64,000 nt of DNA from Patescibacteria group bacterium (GCA_041661405.1 JBAZUL010000005.1:3164-67163), one strand, 5' to 3'; positions 28,694 through 59,605 are shown, numbered from the stretch's first letter. The notes: generated by a model not told the origin, from the sequence alone. Numbers and translations are program-made.

Positions 28694-28875
28694 ACAAATA
28701 AAATCCGTCCCTTTTGAGGACGGTTTCTTTTTTACAGTCTGCTGTTCATGGGTTTTTTAACTTTCAGACTTAGACTTTTGACTTATGGGAAACCATCCTT
28801 AAAACCGGCTTGCTACCCGAGCCGCCGCATCCGCCTGAAAGAGACATTTTAAAGATGGTTATGTTCATAATTATA
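28694..28875 (-). promoter_or_regulatory. structured cysK leader of about 180 nt (candidate riboswitch or attenuator, class unknown)
   Basis: A 14-bp P1-like helix (28790-28803/28846-28859, one G-U) encloses a GC-rich core. An AAGTC word array follows, then hairpin CCGTCC..GGACGG (28705-28723) plus a U-run 11 nt before the ATG. Promoter-like TTGACA/TATAAT elements lie at about 28880-28915. Confidence 0.4.
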
Positions 28876-28961
28876 TGCTAAATAATTTTTACTCAACTGT
28901 CAATAGCGCCGAGCGCGAGAGAGAGGCGTCCCGTAGCCGCCCCGCATTTTGCGGGGCGGGA

Positions 28962-29675: not shown

Positions 29676-30959
29676 TTACTGGTTGCTTAATAATATCTTT
29701 TTTACTTCCTCATAATCATTCTTAACGCAAATCTTTCTTTTCTCCAGCTTCGCTAAATTAGCAATCTCTTTAGAGTCGTCAACTTCAATGCCGGTGTGCT
29801 TTTTTATTACGTCAGCGAACTTTATTGGCGAGGCCGTGGAAAAAATAACTTTGGTATAATCATTAGAACCTTCTTTTTCCGCTCCGGCAAAAGCCACGGC
29901 CGTATGCGGATCAAGCAAGTATCCGTATTTTTCGTAAACTTTTTTTATTATAGCCGCTGTTTCCGCGTCTTCCACCCTTTCGGCTTTAATTACTTTGCGG
30001 AATTCTTCCGGGTCATTATTGAATACTTTTTGGATGCGGATAAAATTGCTCGGGTTGCCGATGTCCATGGCGTTGGAAAGGGTCGCGACCGTCGCCCGCG
30101 GTTTAAACTCTCCTGTCTCGTAATATTTTTTCGCCGCGTCATTAGCGTTGGTAACGGCTAAAAACCGGCTGAAAGGAAATCCCATTTCCCTAGCGAAAAC
30201 TCCGGCGCAAAGGTTGCCGTAATTGCCGCAAGGCACGACGAATTCCAGCTTCTGATCAGCCAGTTGGGAATAGACATAAGCGTAATAAACCATTTGCGGG
30301 AGGAGCCGGCCGACGCTTATGGAATTAGCCGCCGTAAGGTTTAATTCTGCTAAGTCCGGATCATTAAACGCCCGCTTAGCGAACGCCTGGCAGTCGTCAA
30401 AAACGCCTTCAATTTCTATTGTCGTTACATTCGGTTCTACGCGGGTTAACTGCTCTTCCTGCAGTTTGGAAACCATGCCTTTGGGATAAAGGATGATGAC
30501 TTTCACGTTCGGTACGCCGCCGAAGCCGTGCGCTACAGCGCCGCCCGTATCGCCCGAAGTCGCGACTAAAATCGTCGCGGTCCGGTTTTCTTTTAGAAGG
30601 ATCCGGCCCATGAACCGCGCGAGAACCCGCGCCGCCACGTCCTTAAACGCGAGCGTCGGACCATGGAACAGCTCAAGCACCTGGTAATCGCCGATCTTTT
30701 TCAAAGGCAGGGGAAAATTTAAAGCCTCAGCCATTATTTCCCGGAGTTCGGCTTCGCTAAAATCATCGCTAACCCATTTTAAAAGCGTTTTTGCCGCGGC
30801 TTCGGCCAAAGGCTTTCCTTTTAAATTTTCCAGCTCTTTTGCCGTTAATTTTGGAAAAAATTCGGGAAAATAAAGCCCCCCGTCCGGGGCGAGGCTTTTT
30901 AGCATGGCTTCCCGGAAGGTTGCTTTTGGCGATTTTCCGTTCAGGCTGTAAAAATTCAT
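29676..30959 (-). CDS. thrC: threonine synthase
   Basis: 427 aa. The N-terminus FREAMLKSLAPDGGLYFP, the PLP-lysine region FHGPTLAFKDVA and SGDTGGA fit the long ThrC class. Confidence 0.9.
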   Translation of the reverse strand: MNFYSLNGKSPKATFREAMLKSLAPDGGLYFPEFFPKLTAKELENLKGKPLAEAAAKTLLKWVSDDFSEAELREIMAEALNFPLPLKKIGDYQVLELFHGPTLAFKDVAARVLARFMGRILLKENRTATILVATSGDTGGAVAHGFGGVPNVKVIILYPKGMVSKLQEEQLTRVEPNVTTIEIEGVFDDCQAFAKRAFNDPDLAELNLTAANSISVGRLLPQMVYYAYVYSQLADQKLEFVVPCGNYGNLCAGVFAREMGFPFSRFLAVTNANDAAKKYYETGEFKPRATVATLSNAMDIGNPSNFIRIQKVFNNDPEEFRKVIKAERVEDAETAAIIKKVYEKYGYLLDPHTAVAFAGAEKEGSNDYTKVIFSTASPIKFADVIKKHTGIEVDDSKEIANLAKLEKRKICVKNDYEEVKKILLSNQ

Positions 30960-31021: not shown

Positions 31022-31435
31022 TTATTTCTTCTCGTCTTTATTTAATTTATAATTAAAACTCTCAACGAGCGCGATCCAGCTGGCTTCTATAATATTTAAC
31101 GACACTCCGGCCGTTTCCCAACTGTCTTTTCCGTCGGTTGATTCAATCGCTACCCGGACTTTGGCCGCGGTGCCGTCGTTTGAAGGAAGCACCCGGACTT
31201 TGTAATCCGTCAGTTTCATCTTTTTTAAGCCCGGATAAACCCTTTCCAGAGACATTCTTAAAGCGTTATTTAAAGCGTCAACCGGCCCGACCCCGGCCGC
31301 CGTATTCCTTTCTTTATCAGCGCCAACTTTTATCCCGACCTCAGCCTCGGCCGTTGGTTCGCCCCAGTCCCGCTCTTTATGGACGCTCACCCGGTAATCC
31401 ATGAGCTCAAAGAATTTTTTTTCTTTGTTAGGCAT
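31022..31435 (-). CDS. stand-alone LeuA_dimer-type (IPMS/citramalate synthase C-terminal allosteric) domain protein
   Basis: The 137-aa sequence ...AEAEVGIKVG...AAGVGPVDALNNALR...LTDYKVRVLPSNDGTAAKVRVAIESTDGKDSWETAGVSLNIIEASWIALVESFNYKL closely matches the regulatory domain of CimA/LeuA. No catalytic barrel is present. Confidence 0.75.
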   Translation of the reverse strand: MPNKEKKFFELMDYRVSVHKERDWGEPTAEAEVGIKVGADKERNTAAGVGPVDALNNALRMSLERVYPGLKKMKLTDYKVRVLPSNDGTAAKVRVAIESTDGKDSWETAGVSLNIIEASWIALVESFNYKLNKDEKK

Positions 31436-31821: not shown

Positions 31822-31972
31822 GTTATCACCTCCTTTCCCCCGAATTTGAAAAAAACAATAAATCTCCTATACAACCCCAGCCTCTTCTAAACTTAATCTT
31901 GTCCTCCGTAGCCTTGGCAAAGGAGGAAAAGGCCAAAGTAATATCCGCGATTTTTTTGAAAGAACATTAAAC

Positions 31973-31999
31973 AAAAATACCGCCCCGGTTGCGGGCGGC
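31973..31999 (-). terminator. attenuator terminator of the Thr/Ile/Met-rich leader
   Basis: The minus strand reads GCCGCCCgcaaccgGGGCGGTATTTTTG. Its 5' arm (31989-31999) is perfectly complementary (11 bp) to 32055-32065 inside the leader ORF. Confidence 0.6.
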
Positions 32000-32027
32000 T
32001 TTCAACTTTTCTTCTAACTTTCAGCTT

Positions 32028-32138
32028 TTAACTTTGAACTTTTAACTTTGTTCTGCCGCCCGCAATTAAAACCCCGGTCATAATAATTCCGGTCATCATC
32101 ATAATGGTCTTAATTGTGGTGGCAATAAATTTCATCAT
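32028..32138 (-). CDS. 36-codon leader peptide rich in Thr, Ile and Met (alternative reading: small hydrophobic peptide)
   Basis: Own translation gives MMKFIATTIKTIMMMTGIIMTGVLIAGGRTKLKVQS. It is below the ORF-track size cutoff. It is preceded by TTGACA-17-TTAAAT, with the ATG 6 nt after the -10 (leaderless geometry). Confidence 0.5.
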   Translation of the reverse strand: MMKFIATTIKTIMMMTGIIMTGVLIAGGRTKLKVQS

Positions 32139-32144
32139 GCTTAT

Positions 32145-32173
32145 ATTTAATCAAACATAGCCAAGGCTGTCAA
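32145..32173 (-). promoter_or_regulatory. sigma70-like promoter for the Thr/Ile/Met leader
   Basis: On the minus strand, TTGACA (32173-32168), a 17-nt spacer and TTAAAT (32150-32145). Confidence 0.5.
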
Positions 32174-34947: not shown

Positions 34948-34976
34948 TTGACACGTCTTTTGAAAATGTGTATTAT
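34948..34976 (+). promoter_or_regulatory. sigma70-like promoter of the aromatic supraoperon
   Basis: TTGACA (34948-34953), an exact 17-nt spacer and TATTAT (34971-34976). Confidence 0.6.
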
Positions 34977-35005
34977 TTAAAAAGTTGCAAAAATACATTT
35001 TTATT

Positions 35006-35086
35006 ATGAAAATCGTCCAATTGTGGTTTAGCTACTTTTACTTTTACTTTACCCTTACTACAAGGCCGGTTTTTTGCATTAGCTAA
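35006..35086 (+). CDS. aromatic-rich leader peptide (26 aa)
   Basis: Own translation gives MKIVQLWFSYFYFYFTLTTRPVFCIS. Eight of nine consecutive codons (W7-F15) are Trp, Phe or Tyr. It is below the ORF-track cutoff. Confidence 0.7.
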   Translation: MKIVQLWFSYFYFYFTLTTRPVFCIS

Positions 35087-35109
35087 CAGCATACATTAAA
35101 AAGATTAAA

Positions 35110-35136
35110 CCCGGCCCAATAGATGGCCGGTTTTTT
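35110..35136 (+). terminator. attenuator terminator downstream of the aromatic leader peptide
   Basis: CCGGCC (35111-35116) pairs with GGCCGG (35125-35130) and is followed by T6 (35131-35136). An identical GGCCGG at 35064-35069 inside the leader ORF can pair with 35111-35116 as an antiterminator. Confidence 0.65.
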
Positions 35137-51776: not shown

Positions 51777-52172
51777 CTATCCGGACAAGCTCTGTTCCGC
51801 GATCTCGGCTACTGTTTCTATTTCAATCATAGCGCCTTTGGGAAGACCAGCGACCTGGATCGTAACCCGAGCCGGATAAGGCTCGGAAAAATATTCCCCG
51901 TAAATTTCGTTCGCTTTAGCAAAATCATTAAGGTCAATTAAGTACATAGTGGAACGAACCACGGCGCCAAAATCCAAACCAACTTCGGCCAAAATAGCTT
52001 TTATGTTTTCCAAAACCTGCCGGGCTTCGGCCTCAATTCCGCCGGAAACCATCTCGCCGTCCGGCCGCAAAGGAATCTGGCCGGAAATAAATAACAGGTT
52101 CCCGGTTCTTACAGCCTGGGAATAAGGGCCGATAGCTTTTGGAGCGTTTGATGTAGTAATTACTTGTTTCAT
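51777..52172 (-). CDS. ridA: RidA family reactive enamine/imine deaminase
   Basis: 131 aa. APKAIGPYSQAV, GQIP and ARV..QVA.LPKGA.IEIE match the YjgF/RidA pattern. Confidence 0.9.
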   Translation of the reverse strand: MKQVITTSNAPKAIGPYSQAVRTGNLLFISGQIPLRPDGEMVSGGIEAEARQVLENIKAILAEVGLDFGAVVRSTMYLIDLNDFAKANEIYGEYFSEPYPARVTIQVAGLPKGAMIEIETVAEIAEQSLSG

Positions 52173-52173
52173 A

Positions 52174-53223
52174 TTATTTCTGCCGCTCCGGCCTTAACGC
52201 TCTGACCGCCGCTCCGGCCTGCCACATCTCGGATTCGCGCATTTCTTTTAATTCATTATCCAGTTTTGCCCGGTAATCCGGATCGCTATTGGCTTTTAGA
52301 ACCACGTCGGTTTGTTCTCCGCTTTTTACCCGGGCGTACAAATCTTCAAAAACCGGCTCCACCGCCTTGCGGAATTCATGGCGCCAGTCCAGCGCGCCGC
52401 GCTGGGCGGTCGTTGAGCAGTTAGCGTACATCCAGTCCATGCCGTTTTCGGCGACTAACGGAATTAAGCTCTGGGTCGCTTCTTCAACTGTCTCGTTAAA
52501 AGCTTCACTCGGCGAATGACCCATCTTCCGCAAAAGGTTATATTGGGCTTCCATGATGCCGGCCAAAGCGCCCATTAAAACTCCGCGTTCGCCGGTTAAA
52601 TCGCTATAAACCTCCTTCTGGAAAGTGGTCGGAAACAGGAATCCGGAACCGACCGCGATTCCGAGAGCCTTTGCCCGGTCTTCAGCCTTGCCGGTCGCGT
52701 CCTGAAAAACCGCGTAGCTTGAGTTAAGCCCTTTGCCTGCGACGAAAAGGCGGCGGAGCGAAGTGCCCGATCCTTTAGGCGCGACTAAAATCACGTCCAC
52801 GTCGGACGGCGGGATTATTCCGGTCTTATCTTTATAAGTAATGCCGAAACCATGGGAAAAATATAAAGCTTTGCCTTTGGTTAAATGTTTTTTTACTGTC
52901 GGCCAAAGGGTAATCTGCCCGGCATCGGATAATAAATAGCAGATAATCGTTCCTTTTTCCAGCGCTTCTTCAATCTCAAATAAATCTTTGCCCGGCTTAA
53001 AACCGTCCGCTACAGCCTTGTCATAAGACGCCGAGGGTTTTCTTTGGCCGACAATTACGTTAATCCCGTTGTCCTTCAGGTTCAGAGACTGTCCGGGACC
53101 CTGCACCCCGTAGCCGATAACAGCCACCACCTCGTCTTTTAAAACTTCCCGCGCTTTTTCCAGAGGAAACTCTTCCCTGGTTACCACTTCCTCCATCACC
53201 CCTCCAAAATTTATTTGCGCCAT
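52174..53223 (-). CDS. ilvC: ketol-acid reductoisomerase (class I)
   Basis: 349 aa. VIGYGVQGPGQSLNLKDNG, the FSHGF motif and a C-terminal knotted-domain pattern. Confidence 0.95.
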   Translation of the reverse strand: MAQINFGGVMEEVVTREEFPLEKAREVLKDEVVAVIGYGVQGPGQSLNLKDNGINVIVGQRKPSASYDKAVADGFKPGKDLFEIEEALEKGTIICYLLSDAGQITLWPTVKKHLTKGKALYFSHGFGITYKDKTGIIPPSDVDVILVAPKGSGTSLRRLFVAGKGLNSSYAVFQDATGKAEDRAKALGIAVGSGFLFPTTFQKEVYSDLTGERGVLMGALAGIMEAQYNLLRKMGHSPSEAFNETVEEATQSLIPLVAENGMDWMYANCSTTAQRGALDWRHEFRKAVEPVFEDLYARVKSGEQTDVVLKANSDPDYRAKLDNELKEMRESEMWQAGAAVRALRPERQK

Positions 53224-53265
53224 AATTTTTAATCTTAATTGATTAAACTTTATAAAAAACTAATA

Positions 53266-54975
53266 TTATTTGCAAATCAACGTGTCCTTCAGAGCCTGTC
53301 CCGGCGGCACCATGGGAAAAACGTTCGCCTCGGGTTCAACCATAAATTCAAGAAATATTGAATCTTTGCTTAGAGCCGCTTTTTTAATCATCGGTTCAAC
53401 CTGATCCAGCCTGGCAATCCGGTAAGCTTCAATCCCGTAGCTCTCGGCGATTTTAACAAAATCCGGATTTTGAAGGGGCGTGCACATGTAGTTTTTCTTA
53501 AAAAACAGTTCTTGCCATTGCCTGACCATTCCTAAAAATCCGTTATTGACCATTATTATTTTAACCGGCAGTTTGTACTCCATTACCGCGCCGAGTTCCT
53601 GCATGTTCATCTGAAATCCGCCGTCGCCCATAATAGACCAAACCTGTTTTTCCGGCCTGGCGATTTGCGCCCCGACTGCCGCCGGAAGGCTATAGCCCAT
53701 GCACCCGAGTCCTCCGGAAGACAGAAACTGGCCGGGATAATTAAAATTAAAATAATGAGCCGTCCACATCTGGTTCTGGCCGACATCAGACACGACTATT
53801 GAATCTTTGGCCGCCTGCCGCGAAATCTCTTCAATCACTTCAAAAACGAACATGTGATTGGTTCTTTTCAGCCTGGCTTCGGTTTTTATCTTATCAAGGC
53901 AGGTTTTTTCTTCCATTTCGCAAATCTTGTCAATCCAGCCTTTTCTCCTTTCAGCGCCCGCTTTCCCGGCCGTCTTTGAATTTAACATCCTGATCGTATC
54001 TTTGCAATTACCCAGAAGCGCCGCGTCAGCCGGAACGTTTTTTCCGATTTCCCGCGGATCAATTTCCAGATGGATAATTTTCGCCCGCTTAGCGTAATGT
54101 TCAAGGTTGCCGGTTATCCGGTCGGAAAATCTCGTTCCGATAGCGATTATCAGGTCGGCGTTATGGACGGCTAAATTAGCGTAAGCCATGCCATGCATGC
54201 CCACCATGCCGAAATTTAACGGATGACTATCCGGCAAAACGGAAAGTCCGAGCAATGTCGTAACAAAAGGCAAATCGTTTGACTCAACGAATTCTTTAAA
54301 CTCCTCCGAAGCGCCGGATAAAATTATTCCGTGGCCGGCGATTACTACCGGCTTTTTTGACCCGTCAATAAGCGCCAGGGCTTTTTCCATTTCTTTATTA
54401 AAATCCTTCACGATCTTTTTATCCGCGCCGTCATCCGGAGCTGTTTTGTCGTCTTTAGGATAAACAAAATCTTTTACTTCAGCCTTAATTACGTCCACCG
54501 GCAAATCAATATGCACCGGCCGTGGCCGTCCGGATCGGGCGAGATAAAAGGCTTCCTTCACAATTCCCGGCAGGTCTTTCACGTCTTTGACAAAATAATT
54601 TTTTTTCGTGATCGGGCGGGTAACTTCGGTCATTTTTATTTCCTGAAAAGCGTCAGTGCCGTAAATTTTCGTTGAAACCTGCGCCGTAATCGCCACCATG
54701 CCGATTGAGTCCATGTAAGCGTTCGCTATGCCTGAGATAAGGTTGGTCGCGCCGGGTCCGGATGTGCTTAAACACACCCCTGGTTTTCCGGTAACGCGAA
54801 AATAAGCATCAGCCGCCATGGCCGCGCCCTGCTCGTTTCTCGGAAGGACATGCTTAATTTGCGGATAGCTGGATAACCGGTCATGGAGAGGGATAGTCAC
54901 TCCTCCCGGATAGCCGAAAATCACCTCCACCCCTTCCTCCAGTAATGACTTTATTAATATGTCAGCGCCGATCAT
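53266..54975 (-). CDS. ilvB: acetolactate synthase large subunit
   Basis: 569 aa ThDP enzyme. GADILIKSLLEEGV..IFGYPGG, GPGATN and GLGCMGYSLPAAVGA...GDGGFQMN. No ilvN-like small subunit lies adjacent. Confidence 0.9.
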   Translation of the reverse strand: MIGADILIKSLLEEGVEVIFGYPGGVTIPLHDRLSSYPQIKHVLPRNEQGAAMAADAYFRVTGKPGVCLSTSGPGATNLISGIANAYMDSIGMVAITAQVSTKIYGTDAFQEIKMTEVTRPITKKNYFVKDVKDLPGIVKEAFYLARSGRPRPVHIDLPVDVIKAEVKDFVYPKDDKTAPDDGADKKIVKDFNKEMEKALALIDGSKKPVVIAGHGIILSGASEEFKEFVESNDLPFVTTLLGLSVLPDSHPLNFGMVGMHGMAYANLAVHNADLIIAIGTRFSDRITGNLEHYAKRAKIIHLEIDPREIGKNVPADAALLGNCKDTIRMLNSKTAGKAGAERRKGWIDKICEMEEKTCLDKIKTEARLKRTNHMFVFEVIEEISRQAAKDSIVVSDVGQNQMWTAHYFNFNYPGQFLSSGGLGCMGYSLPAAVGAQIARPEKQVWSIMGDGGFQMNMQELGAVMEYKLPVKIIMVNNGFLGMVRQWQELFFKKNYMCTPLQNPDFVKIAESYGIEAYRIARLDQVEPMIKKAALSKDSIFLEFMVEPEANVFPMVPPGQALKDTLICK

Positions 54976-55032
54976 AAATTTCTCATAACTCGTAACGCGT
55001 AGCTCATAACAAATAAATTAACTTTCCGCGCT

Positions 55033-56652
55033 TTATCTATTATCAACCGCGTTTTTTCTATATGCCTCCAGCATCCTCGTCATCTTTCTCGCTGGGATCT
55101 TTACCGTTTTTAGTCTTTTCTTAATTTCGTTCTTTGATAATTTTACATTCAGCCTCCGTTTCGGGATATCAATCTCAATCATATCGCCGTCCCGGATTAC
55201 GCCGATTACGCCGCCGAGGTACGCTTCGGGTTCAATATGCCCGATGGCCGCTCCGCGGGTTCCGCCGGAAAATCTTCCGTCAGTTATCAGGGCGCATTTT
55301 AACCCGGCGCCGGTTATCGCCGCGGTCGGAGTAAGCATCTCGGGCATGCCCGGCGCGCCAGCCAGCCCCATGAAATTTATAACAATCACATCGTTGTTTT
55401 TTATTTTTTTATCGCGCACGGCTTTTAACACCGCTTCTTCGTTATCAAACACCTTGGCCGGTCCGGTTATTTTCATCATGTCCGGCTCCACGGCTGTTTG
55501 TTTAACCACTGACGAGCGCGCCAAATTGCCTTTTAAAACCGCGATCCCGCCTTCTTTATAAAAAGGATTACTAAGCGGCCTTATCACTTTATCGTTTTTC
55601 ACTTTAGCCGACTTGGCAATCTGCTTAATTTTTTTTCCATTAATAGTCTTGGCTTCCAGTAAATATTTTTCCAAACGATTTAACACCGCCGGAATGCCTC
55701 CGGCCTTATCTAGTTCTTCCATAACATAAGGCCCAGCCGGCCGGATATGGCAGATATTAGAGGTTGTCCGCGCCAAATCGTCAAATACATGGAGCGGTAA
55801 ATCTATTCCGCATTCTTTGGCAATGGCCGGTAAATGCAAGGCCGTATTGGTTGAACCGCCGATGGCCATATCCACCCGCACGGCGTTTAAAAAGGCGTTT
55901 TTCGTCATGATGTCTTTTGGCCGGACATTCTTTTTCACCAGTTCCACGATTCGCCTGCCAGTCGCGTAAGCCTGTTTTTTCTTTTTAGGATCCACGGCTA
56001 AGGTCGTAGCGCATCCGGTTACGCTCATTCCAAGCACTTCGGTCATGGCCGCCATGGAATTGGCGGTAAAAAGCCCGGCGCAGGATCCGGCTCCGGGGCA
56101 GGAATTACATTCTATTTCCATGGCGTCTTTTTTCGTCAATTTTCCGGCTTCGTATTGCCCGACCGCTTCAAAATCGGAAATTACATCCATTTTTTTTCCG
56201 TTCACAATGCCGGCTTTCATCGGACCGCCGGTTAAAATCGCCGTTGGCAGGTTCAGCCGCCCGGCCGCCATAAGCATGCCCGGCGTTATCTTATCGCAAT
56301 TCGTCACTCCAACCCAGCCGTCCAAAGAATGGGACAGGGCCATGATTTCAATATTATCGGCAATATGTTCCCGGCTCGGCAGGCTAAGGCGCATTTCAAC
56401 ATACATGGCAATGCCGTCGCAGACTCCCGGCACGCCCCATTCAAAAGGAACGCCTCCGGCAGAGCGAATACCCCGCTTCACTTCTTCAGCCAGTTCGCGC
56501 AAATGGATATGCCCGGGAATTATGTCATTAAAAGAGTTAGCCACGCCGATAAAAGGCTTTTTAAAATCTTCGCCTTTTAACCCGCTCGCCCGGAGCAAAG
56601 CCCGGTGCGGCATGGTAGCGATACCTGTTTTTAGTTTTTGCGATGGAAGCAT
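55033..56652 (-). CDS. ilvD: dihydroxy-acid dehydratase
   Basis: 539 aa. [25 protein letters not shown] and SPEA-like motifs. Confidence 0.95.
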
Positions 56653-56656
56653 AATT

Positions 56657-57556
56657 TTATACGTAAGTTAACCACTTTTTATATTTATCATTTTCCCCCG
56701 ACACAATCCGCATAAATTTTTCATTCAGTTTCGCGGTTATCGACCCCATTTTCCCGTCGGCAATCCGGCAATCATTTATTGATCCGATCGGCGTTACTTC
56801 GGCCGCCGTGCCGGTAAAAAAGCACTCATCGGCTGACAAAGCTTCGTCCATGGTAATTGTTTTTTCTTCGGTTTCATATCCAAGCTCCCTGGCCAGTTCA
56901 ATAATGGATTTTCTCGTAATCCCGGCGAGGATTGTCCCGAGTTTGGGCGTAATTAGTTTTCCATCTTTTACCAGGAAAAAATTTTCTCCCGGCCCTTCGG
57001 CGATATTTCCGTTAAAATCCAGAAGCAAAGCCTCGTCATAGCCTTCGCCGTTGACCTGTAAAAAAGACAGGATGGAATTGACGTAATGGCCGCAGATTTT
57101 CGCGTCAGCCACGGACGATTGCGGATGGATCCGGATATAATCGGCTACTTTCACTTTTATCGGATCAGCGCTTAAATATTTGCCCCAAGGCCAGGCGGCG
57201 ATAATCCCTTCCACCGGACAGCCTAACGGGCTGATGCGCAGTTCGCCATAACCGTAATAAATTAGCGGCCGGATGTAGCCTTGCTTTAATCCGTTGATTT
57301 TTACGGTTTCAATTATCGCGTTTTTAAACTCTTCTTTAGTCCACGGCATTTTCATTTTTATGGCGTTAGCCGAATAGTAAAGCCGGTCAATATGCTCGTC
57401 CAGGCGGAAAATAGCCCCGCCCCGCGAAGCCTCGTAAACGCGGATGCCTTCAAAAACTCCGGAGCCGTAATGGAGCGAGTGGGACAGGACGTGGACTTTA
57501 ACGTCCTCCCAGAGCTTCATCTCCCCGTTTTGCCAGATGTATTTAGTCGTTTGCAT
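56657..57556 (-). CDS. ilvE: branched-chain amino acid aminotransferase
   Basis: Start at [13 protein letters not shown]...[14 protein letters not shown] (57556). The track start at 57667 overlaps the upstream gene by 110 nt. Fold-type IV motifs EGPGENFF and GITR are present. Confidence 0.9.
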
Positions 57557-57557
57557 A

Positions 57558-59408
57558 TCATTTTCTCTTATTACACAAAATATTATATCCCCGCTCAAAC
57601 GCCTCAATTGACGCGACGATGATATCCGGCGAGGTGGCGGTGGCGATGACTTTATTTTCAAATTCATCTTTTAAATTCATGGTTACCTCAACCGACGCGT
57701 CAGTTCCCTTGCGGTCAATTTTCACGTCATAATCAATGAGCCAGTAATTCGGCAGTTTTTCGCTCTTTATCACTTCCCGCGCGGCTTTCATTATCGCGTC
57801 CACCGGACCGACGCCTAAAGTTTTCGCTTTGCAGATATGTTTTTCGTTAATCCTGACGCAAACTTCAGCCTCGGCCTTACCGGATTTGGAAGTCGTCACC
57901 TTAAAATCTTCCACTTTAATAATTTTCTTCGCGCCCGGGTCGGTCTTTAAGATGGCTTCTATGACATGCTGTAAATCCGATTTCCGCATCTTGTCTTCTT
58001 TCTTAAAAAAATTCTCCACTTCTTCCTGGATGGCTTCCAAATATTTTTTCGTCAAATCAACTCCGAATTTTTCTTTTACTGTTTTATTGGTCTGTTTCAG
58101 ATTCGGCATTCTAGCGAATAGCACTTCTGTTTTATCTTTTTCCGCCGAAGCCTGGATTTTATAAAGCTTCATTTTCAGATAACGGTCAACTTCCGAAAGC
58201 TTCGGCTCTATGGATGGCGGCGAAGGCAAGATTCGGAGCATAGTCAAAGGATCTTTTAAGCCATGCCCCGTAAGCGAGCATACCACGACATCATTCTCCT
58301 TTATCCGGCGCTCGTTAACCATCTTTTTTAAGGCCGCCAAAGGCAGGGCTGAAGACGGCTCAACAAAAATGGATTCTTCGCCCGCGAGCTCTTTTTCCGC
58401 TTCAAGAATCTCTTCATCGGAAATTTCCAAAGCCATTCCTTTGGTTTCATAAATCGCTTTTAATACTTTTACGCCGTCAAAGGGATTATTTACCGCTACG
58501 GCCGAAGCTATCGTATTAAGTTTAGTTAAGGGCGTGATGTCTTTTTTTCCTTTTTTAAACGCCTCCACCACGGCGTTAGATCCCCGGGGCTGGACAGCTA
58601 TCACCTTAGGCAGTTTATCAATTAATCCGAGATTGTAGTATTCTTTCATGCCTTTGTAAATCGCCGCCAGGTTGGTTCCGACTCCGACCGGACCGATTAA
58701 ATAGTCCGGAGCGTTCCAGTTTAACTGCTCTACTATTTCATATCCTTGGGATTTTTGCCCTTCGGCCCGAAAGGCGTAATCACCGGCCAGATAAAAACCA
58801 TATTTTCTCGCGATCTCTTCCGCCAATTTAGCGCAAATACTGTAAGGCGCCCGGACCTGAATCATTCTCGCGCCATACGCCAGAGTCTGAGTCAATTTCC
58901 CCAAAGGCGTTCCTTCGGGGATAACAATATAGGCCGGCAAACCCGCCTGAGCCGCGTAGGCGGAAACCGAAGCCGCCATATTCCCGGTTGAGGCGACAAC
59001 AATCGCTTTGGCTCCGATTTCAAGCGCCTTGGTTATTTCAACCATGGTGCCGCGATCTTTAAAAACTCCGGTCGGGTTGGTGGTCTCGTCTTTAAAATAA
59101 ATATTTTTAATTCCGAGCTTTTTGGCGATTCTTTTTGATTTTTTCAGCGGCGTTCCTCCCTCGTTCAGGCTCACCAGCTTGCTTAAATCAAGAATAGGGT
59201 AAAAATTCAGGTATTTGGTCGCGGAAATCGGCGCGCTTCTCAGGTTATATAAATTAAGCCGGGCTCCGATAAATTTCCAGTCATAAGAAACATCCAAAGG
59301 ACCGCCGCACTTAAGACAGGTCGTGGATGTTTCTTTTTCATCCCAAACCGCGCCGCATTTTACGCATTTCAGCTGGTAGAATTTATTGTTGTTAGCGCTG
59401 GCTTTCAT
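57558..59408 (-). CDS. ThrC-family PLP enzyme (N-terminal Zn-ribbon) fused to a C-terminal LeuA_dimer-type allosteric domain
   Basis: 616 aa. CVKCG...CLKCGG ribbon, FKDETTNPTGVFKDRG (PLP Lys) and ASTGNMAAS. After about residue 400 comes a linker, then AEAEVCVRI...TLGVGPVDAIMKAAREV...LIDYDVKI..KGTDASVEVTM...SPDIIVASIEAFERGYN, which aligns with 31022..31435 and with the LeuA/CimA C-terminus at 62751. Confidence 0.8.
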   Translation of the reverse strand: MKASANNNKFYQLKCVKCGAVWDEKETSTTCLKCGGPLDVSYDWKFIGARLNLYNLRSAPISATKYLNFYPILDLSKLVSLNEGGTPLKKSKRIAKKLGIKNIYFKDETTNPTGVFKDRGTMVEITKALEIGAKAIVVASTGNMAASVSAYAAQAGLPAYIVIPEGTPLGKLTQTLAYGARMIQVRAPYSICAKLAEEIARKYGFYLAGDYAFRAEGQKSQGYEIVEQLNWNAPDYLIGPVGVGTNLAAIYKGMKEYYNLGLIDKLPKVIAVQPRGSNAVVEAFKKGKKDITPLTKLNTIASAVAVNNPFDGVKVLKAIYETKGMALEISDEEILEAEKELAGEESIFVEPSSALPLAALKKMVNERRIKENDVVVCSLTGHGLKDPLTMLRILPSPPSIEPKLSEVDRYLKMKLYKIQASAEKDKTEVLFARMPNLKQTNKTVKEKFGVDLTKKYLEAIQEEVENFFKKEDKMRKSDLQHVIEAILKTDPGAKKIIKVEDFKVTTSKSGKAEAEVCVRINEKHICKAKTLGVGPVDAIMKAAREVIKSEKLPNYWLIDYDVKIDRKGTDASVEVTMNLKDEFENKVIATATSPDIIVASIEAFERGYNILCNKRK

Positions 59409-59442: not shown

Positions 59443-59470
59443 ATAAAAAATACCACCTATGTTGGTGGCA
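59443..59470 (-). terminator. attenuator terminator of the Ile/Leu/Val leader
   Basis: The minus strand reads GCCACCaacataGGTGGT followed by ATTTTTTAT. Upstream GTGGCAGTTT can pair with AAACTGCCAC (10 bp) to sequester the 5' arm. Confidence 0.6.
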
Positions 59471-59504
59471 GTTTTTTCTTTTTTGTTCAATCGTGAAACT
59501 GCCA

Positions 59505-59570
59505 CTAGGTGGGTATAATCAAGCTTACTACTACTACAATATCCAGAATTTTTGGCAGTTTTTCGGTCAT
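59505..59570 (-). CDS. Ile/Leu/Val-rich leader peptide (21 aa)
   Basis: Own translation gives MTEKLPKILDIVVVVSLIIPT. Ten of twelve consecutive codons are Ile, Leu or Val. It is below the ORF-track cutoff. Confidence 0.7.
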   Translation of the reverse strand: MTEKLPKILDIVVVVSLIIPT

Positions 59571-59576
59571 GTGTAT

Positions 59577-59605
59577 ATTCTAAATCTTTCCCATAAAGGT
59601 GTCAA
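59577..59605 (-). promoter_or_regulatory. sigma70-like promoter for the ILV leader (leaderless geometry)
   Basis: On the minus strand, TTGACA (59605-59600), a 17-nt spacer and TAGAAT (59582-59577). The leader ATG is 6 nt downstream. Confidence 0.55.

Follow-up and report, generated by a model that had tools for sequence, protein, structure and literature searches.

The enterobacterial trp, leu, thr, ilvGMEDA and ilvBN leaders carry a Shine-Dalgarno (SD) site within a 5' untranslated region (UTR) of ~25-30 nt. In these leaders the regulatory codons and segment 1 overlap. Control of ilvGMEDA is multivalent (Ile/Val/Leu), and the attenuator of the Staphylococcus aureus ilv-leu operon is SD-dependent. 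This S. aureus operon has a leucine-rich attenuator peptide which works together with CodY (PMC5794164). In mycobacteria, leaderless polycysteine short open reading frames (ORFs) are presented as Cys-responsive attenuators in bioRxiv 10.1101/834739. In the ilvBNC operon of Corynebacterium glutamicum, transcription starts 1 nt from the initiation codon of the leader IlvL (MTIIRLVVVTARRLP), as Morbach et al. 2000 is relayed in PMC11857589. Three hairpins act there as anti-antiterminator, antiterminator and terminator, and the authors argued that the 5' hairpin blocks leaderless initiation besides permitting termination (PMC11857589). Here we analyze a related element in a 64,000-nt stretch of DNA from a Patescibacteria group bacterium (GCA_041661405.1 JBAZUL010000005.1:3164-67163), hereafter the window. 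With a probability of about 0.85, we read positions 59443-59605 as a ribosome-mediated (leader-peptide) transcription attenuator that acts on the Ile/Val branch of a leu-ilv cluster; the host is an SD-less Patescibacteria/Peribacteria-like bacterium. The closest precedent of the element is the C. glutamicum ilvBNC attenuator.

An Ile/Val/Leu leader with alternative RNA structures

All features of the leader lie on the minus strand. The promoter is made of a -35 hexamer TTGACA (59600-59605), unchanged in the related loci L081, L001 and L082 while the 17-nt spacer diverges, and a -10 hexamer TAGAAT (59577-59582). This 11/12 match to a sigma-70-like promoter was the top score on both strands in the 12 kb scanned (52-64 kb). 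A discriminator of 6 nt (atacac) separates the -10 hexamer from an ATG at 59570. The predicted transcription start falls on the A of this ATG, with the -10 element at -12 to -7 and a C at -1. The ATG opens an ORF of 21 codons plus TAG (59505-59570) encoding MTEKLPKILDIVVVVSLIIPT*, which reads ATG ACC GAA AAA CTG CCA AAA ATT CTG GAT ATT GTA GTA GTA GTA AGC TTG ATT ATA CCC ACC TAG. It is not extendable upstream, because an in-frame TAG lies 12 nt 5' of the start codon. Ile, Val and Leu account for 11 of the 21 codons, including a VVVV run, and related Ile/Val/Leu-rich ORFs occupy the same place in ~45 loci of the candidate phyla radiation (CPR). From the translation and from the stall simulation described below, the predicted regulatory codons are I8, L9, (D10), I11, V12-V15, (S16), L17, I18 and I19 (59514-59549). 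All four Val codons (V12-V15, 59526-59537) are GTA, the rarest Val codon in the genes of the window (17%).

Downstream of the stop codon, TGGCAGTTT is followed by 21 nt, AAACTGCCACC, AACA, TAGGTGGTA and TTTTTT (to 59445); the ATG of the next gene (59408) comes 37 nt further on. Four segments can be delimited in the leader RNA. Segment 1 (A), the protector or anti-antiterminator, is AAACTGCCA in codons 4-6 (59553-59561). Segment 2 (B'+B), CCACCTA followed by GTGGCAGTTT (59496-59512), straddles the stop codon and is the 5' strand of the antiterminator; it was defined by exact repeats, the minimum-free-energy fold of the antiterminator and covariation. Segment 3 (C), AAACTGCCACC (59464-59474), serves either as partner of B in the antiterminator or as 5' arm of the terminator, and segment 4 (D), TAGGTGGTA (59451-59459), as 3' arm of the terminator or as partner of B'. 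The repeat finder, the terminator scan and covariation all point to these last two segments. The U-run of the predicted intrinsic terminator (T6, 59445-59450) was identified in the sequence and by the terminator scan.

The repeat finder returned an exact complement for every pairing. In A:B, AAACTGCCA (59561-59553) and TGGCAGTTT (59504-59496) form 9 bp; in B:C, GTGGCAGTTT (59505-59496, beginning at the G of the TAG stop) and AAACTGCCAC (59474-59465) form 10 bp; in B':D, CCACCTA (59512-59506; codons 20-21 and the TA of the stop) and TAGGTGG (59459-59453) form 7 bp. The terminator scan placed TGCCACC-AACATA-GGTGGTA at 59470-59451, directly before the T6 at 59450-59445. In the window, the protector duplex was equalled in 3 of 1000 shuffles (p=0.003). 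These were mononucleotide shuffles; a codon-shuffle control (p=0.01-0.03) was judged too lenient, since the AAA, CTG and CCA codons survive it. According to these complementarities, the antiterminator is predicted to sequester both terminator arms, through CCACCTA:TAGGTGG plus GTGGCAGTTT:AAACTGCCAC. The fold without ribosome combines A:B with the terminator (-30.2 kcal/mol, z = -2.9).

A preliminary description of this locus had proposed an Ile/Leu/Val leader peptide, a TTGACA-17-TAGAAT promoter beside its ATG and four complementary segments in order. Our results agree on these three points: the peptide precedes branched-chain genes and has comparative support, the hexamers end 6 nt from the ATG, and the pairings are exact at the positions given above. 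It had also proposed protector, antiterminator and terminator alternatives like those of the trp or ilv leaders. All three are indeed present, but the protector lies 5' of the regulatory codons, unlike in trp. The antiterminator, which includes the 10 bp of B:C, is larger than was described: the B':D pairing had been missed, and both terminator arms are captured.

Ribosome-dependent switching in the folding model

We then estimated how probable the terminator helix is with a ribosome at each codon, the RNA being masked from 15 nt on the 5' side to 12 nt on the 3' side of the first base in the A-site. This probability is 0.90-0.96 in the absence of a ribosome. It drops to ~0 with the A-site on codons 1-11, where the minimum-free-energy fold is a 17-bp bulged antiterminator (-23.5 kcal/mol), takes values of 0.06-0.35 on V12-V15 and reaches 0.77-0.99 from S16 to the stop. 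Forbidding pairs across the ribosome leaves the antiterminator as winner up to S16 (terminator probability 0) and the terminator from I18 to the stop (0.8-1.0). When the upstream sequence was dinucleotide-shuffled 300 times, a complete ribosome-dependent switch arose only once. Most of 44 relatives behave alike in the same folding; the rows for L004, L163, L090, L008 and L093 were disregarded, as the automatic terminator picking had taken the wrong T-run. In this model the protector is masked by an initiating or early-codon ribosome rather than by the stalled one, unlike in the trp paradigm. In a second departure from trp, stalls on L17-I19 are predicted to favor termination, which makes the share of these codons in regulation uncertain.

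These elements suggest the following mechanism. The near-consensus promoter would start the RNA at, or 1-2 nt from, the AUG of the 21-codon leader, and a 70S ribosome would probably initiate at this 5'-terminal AUG. When charged Ile-tRNA and Val-tRNA (probably also Leu-tRNA) are ample, the ribosome would reach the last codons or the stop and cover CCACCUA-GUGGCAGUUU (B'B). The UGCCACC/GGUGGUA hairpin would then fold and, with U6, end transcription 37 nt 5' of the ThrC-like gene. A stall on I8, L9, I11 or the four GUA Val codons would leave B'B free, so that B pairs with AAACUGCCAC and B' with UAGGUGG. With both terminator arms captured, RNA polymerase would proceed into ThrC-like-ilvE-ilvD-ilvB-ilvC-ridA. 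If no ribosome has loaded, or once it has gone, AAACUGCCA (nt 10-18) would pair with B and restore the terminator. This same pairing should also occlude the 5' end required for leaderless initiation.

Covariation and distribution in relatives

The ThrC-like fusion encoded downstream of the leader was aligned, and this alignment was used to search the GTDB species representatives and the metagenomes of the Joint Genome Institute (JGI) for relatives; with eight exact-protein look-ups added, 168 loci were collected. An Ile/Val/Leu-rich short ORF is found 80-300 nt 5' of the ThrC-like gene in the low-GC CPR loci, in ~45 loci overall (19 GTDB CPR loci and further metagenomic ones). Examples are MTKKLPKTLDIVVVVSLIIPT in a 98% relative, MIKKLPKNLDIVVVVSLIIPT in a 76% relative, MITRPQNILLVNLILPT, MNIVNLIIISIIIAT, MRPTITNIIIIIIIIATQVVG and MKRLVLIISVIIIIL, among many others. 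Among the 168 loci, the high-GC Methylomirabilota homologues of the fusion have no such leader ORF. Across relatives the composition of the peptide is kept, while its sequence and length are not. This is the signature of a regulatory leader, because composition rather than peptide sequence is conserved. When the window is compared with L081 and L001, differences are seen in the loops and in the codons on either side of AAA-CTG-CCA; the segments are identical, synonymous positions included.

Covariation of the two-part antiterminator (B':D + B:C, 20 pairs) was scored in a 12-sequence MAFFT alignment, against controls in which the partner was slid by 1-3 columns and against 500 shuffles. Our results showed that 87% of the cells are paired vs 28-53% in the slid controls, with double-sided changes in six pairs (19 cells). 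In the 500 shuffles, neither the paired fraction nor the number of double-change cells nor the covariation score was ever reached. An anchored count over 18 sequences gave 77% paired vs 25-52%, and in all 18 the 10 nt immediately 5' of B are the window of the ORF that pairs best with the 3' arm of the terminator. The core of the terminator (CCACC/GGUGG) is invariant, hence uninformative, and the adjoining pair varies between GC, GU and AU. The protector reaches p<=0.01 against 1000 shuffles in six sequences, the window itself (WIN), L081, L001, L082, L047 and L166, always in codons 2-7. The sequences involved differ yet compensate (AAACUGCCA, AGACCGC, GACCAACCAU, UAACUAAUC), and covarying counterparts of the window's protector are found in L082, L047 and L166.

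Taken as a whole, the locus carries the sequence-level hallmarks of its class: an ORF with cognate codons, an intrinsic terminator, a covarying antiterminator, a stop codon placed so that a ribosome on it masks segment 2 in the thermodynamic model, and an anti-antiterminator.

Leaderless or internal start of the leader

The start of the leader was examined across relatives. The 6-nt gap between the -10 element and the ATG, with a pyrimidine at -1 and an A at +1, is kept in L081, L001, L082 and L008 despite differing spacers and discriminators. In 44 non-redundant leaders, the best -10 element lies 6-11 nt from the start codon in 24 (6-9 nt in 18) and 16-46 nt 5' of it in the other 20. This distribution is bimodal. 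The short-gap leaders all start with ATG, while GTG and TTG starts all fall in the long-gap class, as expected if leaderless initiation requires a 5'-terminal AUG. All six sequences in which the protector is significant are short-gap ones. These data make a leaderless start of the window's Ile/Val leader probable, with a fair margin of doubt.

We saw no SD-like motif upstream of any of the window's 47 long ORFs, whose starts lie in A/T-rich sequence such as 'aaaat ATG'. Ca. Peribacter riflensis is likewise listed as SD-scarce and without the CCUCC anti-SD (PMC10783764). The missing SD is therefore no evidence for a leaderless reading of the leader. The preliminary description had gone further, taking leaderless initiation as the way in which SD-less leaders are read. 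As a rule this finds no support, the genome being SD-less throughout and 20 of the 44 leaders having a long gap. It had also noted a like geometry at a Thr/Ile/Met-rich leader of the same window, which we do find: this leader lies at 32138(-), and the -10 element of its TTGACA promoter ends 5-6 nt before the ATG.

Several points weigh against the attenuator with leaderless start as we propose it. By the shuffle test, 12 of 18 close relatives show no detectable protector. The folding is thermodynamic and not co-transcriptional. A ribosome stalled late (V15-I19) leaves the protector free, and the simple model then gives termination for stalls on L17-I19. No terminator was found from the leuB stop (59641) to the leader promoter, and read-through transcripts from leuB, in which the leader is an internal ORF, probably occur. 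Because of this read-through, the leaderless mode is possibly not the only one.

The best surviving rival keeps the attenuator and changes only how its leader is read, as an SD-independent internal or short-UTR ORF on an RNA that reads through from leuB or starts slightly upstream. SD-less internal initiation is the norm in this genome, as the 47 long ORFs and PMC10783764 indicate, and the terminator-free stretch behind leuB would let such an RNA form. The long-gap half of the related leaders and the ~29 nt found at an aromatic leader of the same window fit this view as well. Against it stand the 11/12 promoter placed exactly 6 nt from the ATG with C(-1)A(+1), and a spacing held in L081, L001 and L082 while spacer and discriminator diverge. 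The bimodal gaps (18 of 44 at 6-9 nt), the confinement of GTG/TTG starts to the long-gap class and the shared geometry of the Thr/Ile/Met leader and of an ORF at 28868(-) also speak for a leaderless start. We consider this rival unlikely, though it deserves to be taken seriously.

Alternative explanations for the element

The remaining rivals deny that the element is an attenuator read by a ribosome. In the first, the hairpin and U-run behind leuB would simply terminate or insulate the leu transcript, the ORF and segments being fortuitous and the ilv genes expressed by constitutive leak-through. A hairpin with a U-run after leuB could indeed end an operon. However, this terminator lies 3' of a strong promoter, and no other promoter is seen between it and the next gene. 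In addition, the antiterminator covaries, and the switch arises in only 1 of 300 shuffles. Leaders are also still there when the upstream neighbor is unrelated (L163, L164, L166-L168), and the ThrC-like gene of L163 and L164 is not followed by another ilv gene. The leader thus goes along with the ThrC-like gene and does not serve as a leuB terminator. We regard a plain terminator as very improbable.

Slightly less probable still is a functional small hydrophobic (membrane) peptide. The IVVVVSLII stretch is hydrophobic, and the ORF has its own promoter and terminator. Relatives, however, keep only the Ile/Val/Leu composition and the RNA segments, the last codons are constrained as RNA by their pairing with the 3' arm of the terminator, and the position is always directly before an Ile-pathway gene. 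By analogy, the leader peptide may have an additional role in trans beside attenuation; such a role is shown for the leader peptide peTrpL in Sinorhizobium (PMC7298713).

At the gathering score of Rfam, only tRNAs matched in the window and none of the curated leader families, among them Leu_leader, Thr_leader, Trp_leader and His_leader, did; the best leader match was Thr_leader (13.9 bits vs a gathering score of 55, E=5.9), and no T-box match appeared even at E<=10. Antitermination that depends on uncharged tRNA, as in a T-box, or on an RNA-binding protein also relies on alternative terminator and antiterminator hairpins, but these Rfam searches gave nothing above noise, the ~125 nt hold no specifier loop or T-box architecture, and the stop codon within the antiterminator strand is conserved along with the Ile/Val/Leu codon runs, which makes this the least probable explanation of all. 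The plain leuB terminator, the small membrane peptide, the T-box and the protein-dependent switch were each rejected on this counter-evidence.

Gene context and the ThrC-like fusion

On the minus strand, the genes follow in the order leuA, a leuC-leuD fusion, leuB, the leader, the ThrC-like/LeuA_dimer fusion, ilvE, ilvD, ilvB, ilvC and a RidA deaminase. This order agrees with the preliminary description, which had placed the attenuator inside the leu-ilv cluster between leuB and the ThrC-like gene. The genes predicted to be regulated, from the ThrC-like fusion to RidA, span 51777-59408 (-), and no promoter-like site lies from the terminator to the ATG at 59408. The leuA gene crosses the edge of the window; a frameshift considered for it was discarded, since its reading frame is open to 63998, at the window edge. 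The closest proteins come from metagenome-assembled genomes (MAGs) labelled Patescibacteria group, Peribacteria/Peregrinibacteria, Parcubacteria and Gracilibacteria.

The fusion itself (57558-59408, -) is a protein of 616 aa which joins a threonine-synthase-like, pyridoxal-phosphate (PLP) domain to the allosteric domain of LeuA. The nearest solved structures of its ThrC-like domain are 2zsj and 1uim. Counting the window copy and L001-L168, the fusion is found widely in both CPR and Methylomirabilota. An Ile-rich leader always precedes its gene in CPR, including L163 and L164, where the fusion is the only ilv-type gene behind the leader. A role in the Ile pathway is suggested because the leaders before it are consistently Ile-rich, and one may speculate from this sequence context that it is an Ile-feedback-regulated, 2-oxobutanoate-forming substitute for IlvA. 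A literature search for a described ThrC/LeuA-domain fusion gave nothing relevant, and a scan of viral contigs with the ThrC-like protein gave no relatives.

Between 24142 and 63998, the window holds near-complete Leu/Ile/Val, aromatic, Thr and Ser pathways, which is unusually rich for a genome labelled Patescibacteria/CPR (the MAG label is used as given).

Other leaders in and next to the window

The Thr/Ile/Met-rich leader encodes MMKFIATTIKTIMMMTGIIMTGVLIAGGRTKLKVQS (32138-32028, -; region 31972-32172), with a GC-rich hairpin and T5 at ~32000-31972. Judging from its sequence, it probably belongs to the attenuators of the aspartate family. On its 3' side lie a stand-alone LeuA_dimer-domain protein (31022-31435) and then a canonical thrC (29676-30959).

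An aromatic leader peptide, MKIVQLWFSYFYFYFTLTTRPVFCIS, is encoded at 35006-35086 (+; region 34949-35136). Its terminator is CCCGGCC-8-GGCCGG + T6 (35110-35136). Since its promoter, TTGACA-17-TATTAT, is ~29 nt before the ATG, this leader is not leaderless. The aro operon which follows encodes a DeoC-type aldolase, DHQS-II, an aspartate kinase, Asd, EPSP synthase and a shikimate kinase-dehydrogenase fusion.

A third ORF, of 32 codons (MNITIFKMSLSGGCGGSGSKPVLRMVSHKSKV; 28868-28770, -; region 28696-28910), has TTGACA-17-TAGCAT-6-ATG upstream and a hairpin with a T-run at 28723-28696. The genes after it resemble a PALP enzyme (cysK-like), serA, serC and serB, and it shows no clear codon bias.

Just past the high end of the window, in the same strain (L169:3283-3408), a Leu leader (MLIKLTVKLFNLLLLLPLRRVAVFS) lies 5' of leuA. 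Its terminator is GCCACC(C)...GGTGG + T6, and its antiterminator is long and in two parts (minimum-free-energy fold, z = -2.6). This layout matches that of the Ile/Val leader, so that the leu-ilv cluster has two attenuators of shared design. Together with the Thr/Ile/Met and aromatic leaders, the Leu leader shows the design recurring in this genome, in favor of the attenuator reading.

Significance

CPR bacteria are usually regarded as metabolically dependent. We tentatively propose, as a possibility on which we would not insist, that CPR/Peribacteria-like bacteria autonomously regulate full amino-acid pathways by leader-peptide attenuators (Leu, Ile/Val, Thr/Ile/Met, aromatic), many of them leaderless, with a 5' protector gating the loading of 70S ribosomes. 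If this is true, a single helix would link the question of whether the leader is translated at all to both initiation and termination. Attenuation would then be the main, perhaps ancestral, form of amino-acid sensing in a lineage with a minimal content of regulatory proteins. A Patescibacteria/Peribacteria-like lineage is predicted to hold complete branched-chain, aromatic and Thr/Ser pathways under ribosome-sensing RNA switches.

The ~45 natural covarying variants could seed an RNA family model and improve the annotation of CPR MAGs, and the leaders help to annotate the widespread, uncharacterised ThrC-like/LeuA_dimer fusion as a putative Ile-pathway enzyme. For an organism that lacks SD sites, the element adds evidence of leaderless initiation at the level of sequence.

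Comparison with known attenuators

The mechanism as such is little advanced by this locus: attenuation by ilv leader peptides is textbook knowledge, and the leaderless three-hairpin form has been dissected in Corynebacterium. What is new is the lineage and the sequences. The kind of attenuator is well known and apparently undescribed in CPR; searches of the accessible literature found no paper on attenuation or leader peptides in the candidate phyla radiation, nor one on amino-acid biosynthesis in Peribacteria.

Like the enterobacterial leaders, the CPR element has a short ORF with cognate codons and 1:2, 2:3 and 3:4 pairings that end in an intrinsic terminator. In both, a ribosome at the stop codon would mask segment 2 and a stalled one would free it. 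The predicted control is multivalent for Ile, Val and Leu, as in ilvGMEDA. Unlike the enterobacterial leaders, the CPR element lacks an SD and, as predicted, a UTR, and has its segment 1 in codons 4-6, before the regulatory codons.

The S. aureus ilv-leu operon is likewise reported as a case of leader-peptide attenuation of branched-chain synthesis outside Proteobacteria, but its attenuator is Leu-specific and acts with CodY. The mycobacterial polycysteine ORFs share with the predicted CPR leader a leaderless, 5'-AUG short first cistron that senses the supply of an amino acid and controls the downstream operon; there the amino acid is Cys and the lineage is another.

The C. glutamicum ilvBNC attenuator comes closest, with an Ile/Val/Leu-rich leader before branched-chain genes, three alternative hairpins and a transcription start essentially at the leader's start codon (predicted in our case). 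C. glutamicum belongs to the Actinomycetota, whereas the host here is a CPR/Patescibacteria member without SD sites altogether; the two elements have no sequence similarity, and the CPR one is known from sequence alone. The CPR leader also differs in its place, inside the leu-ilv cluster and before a ThrC-like/LeuA_dimer gene rather than ilvB, and in its antiterminator, which is predicted to pair with both arms of the terminator.

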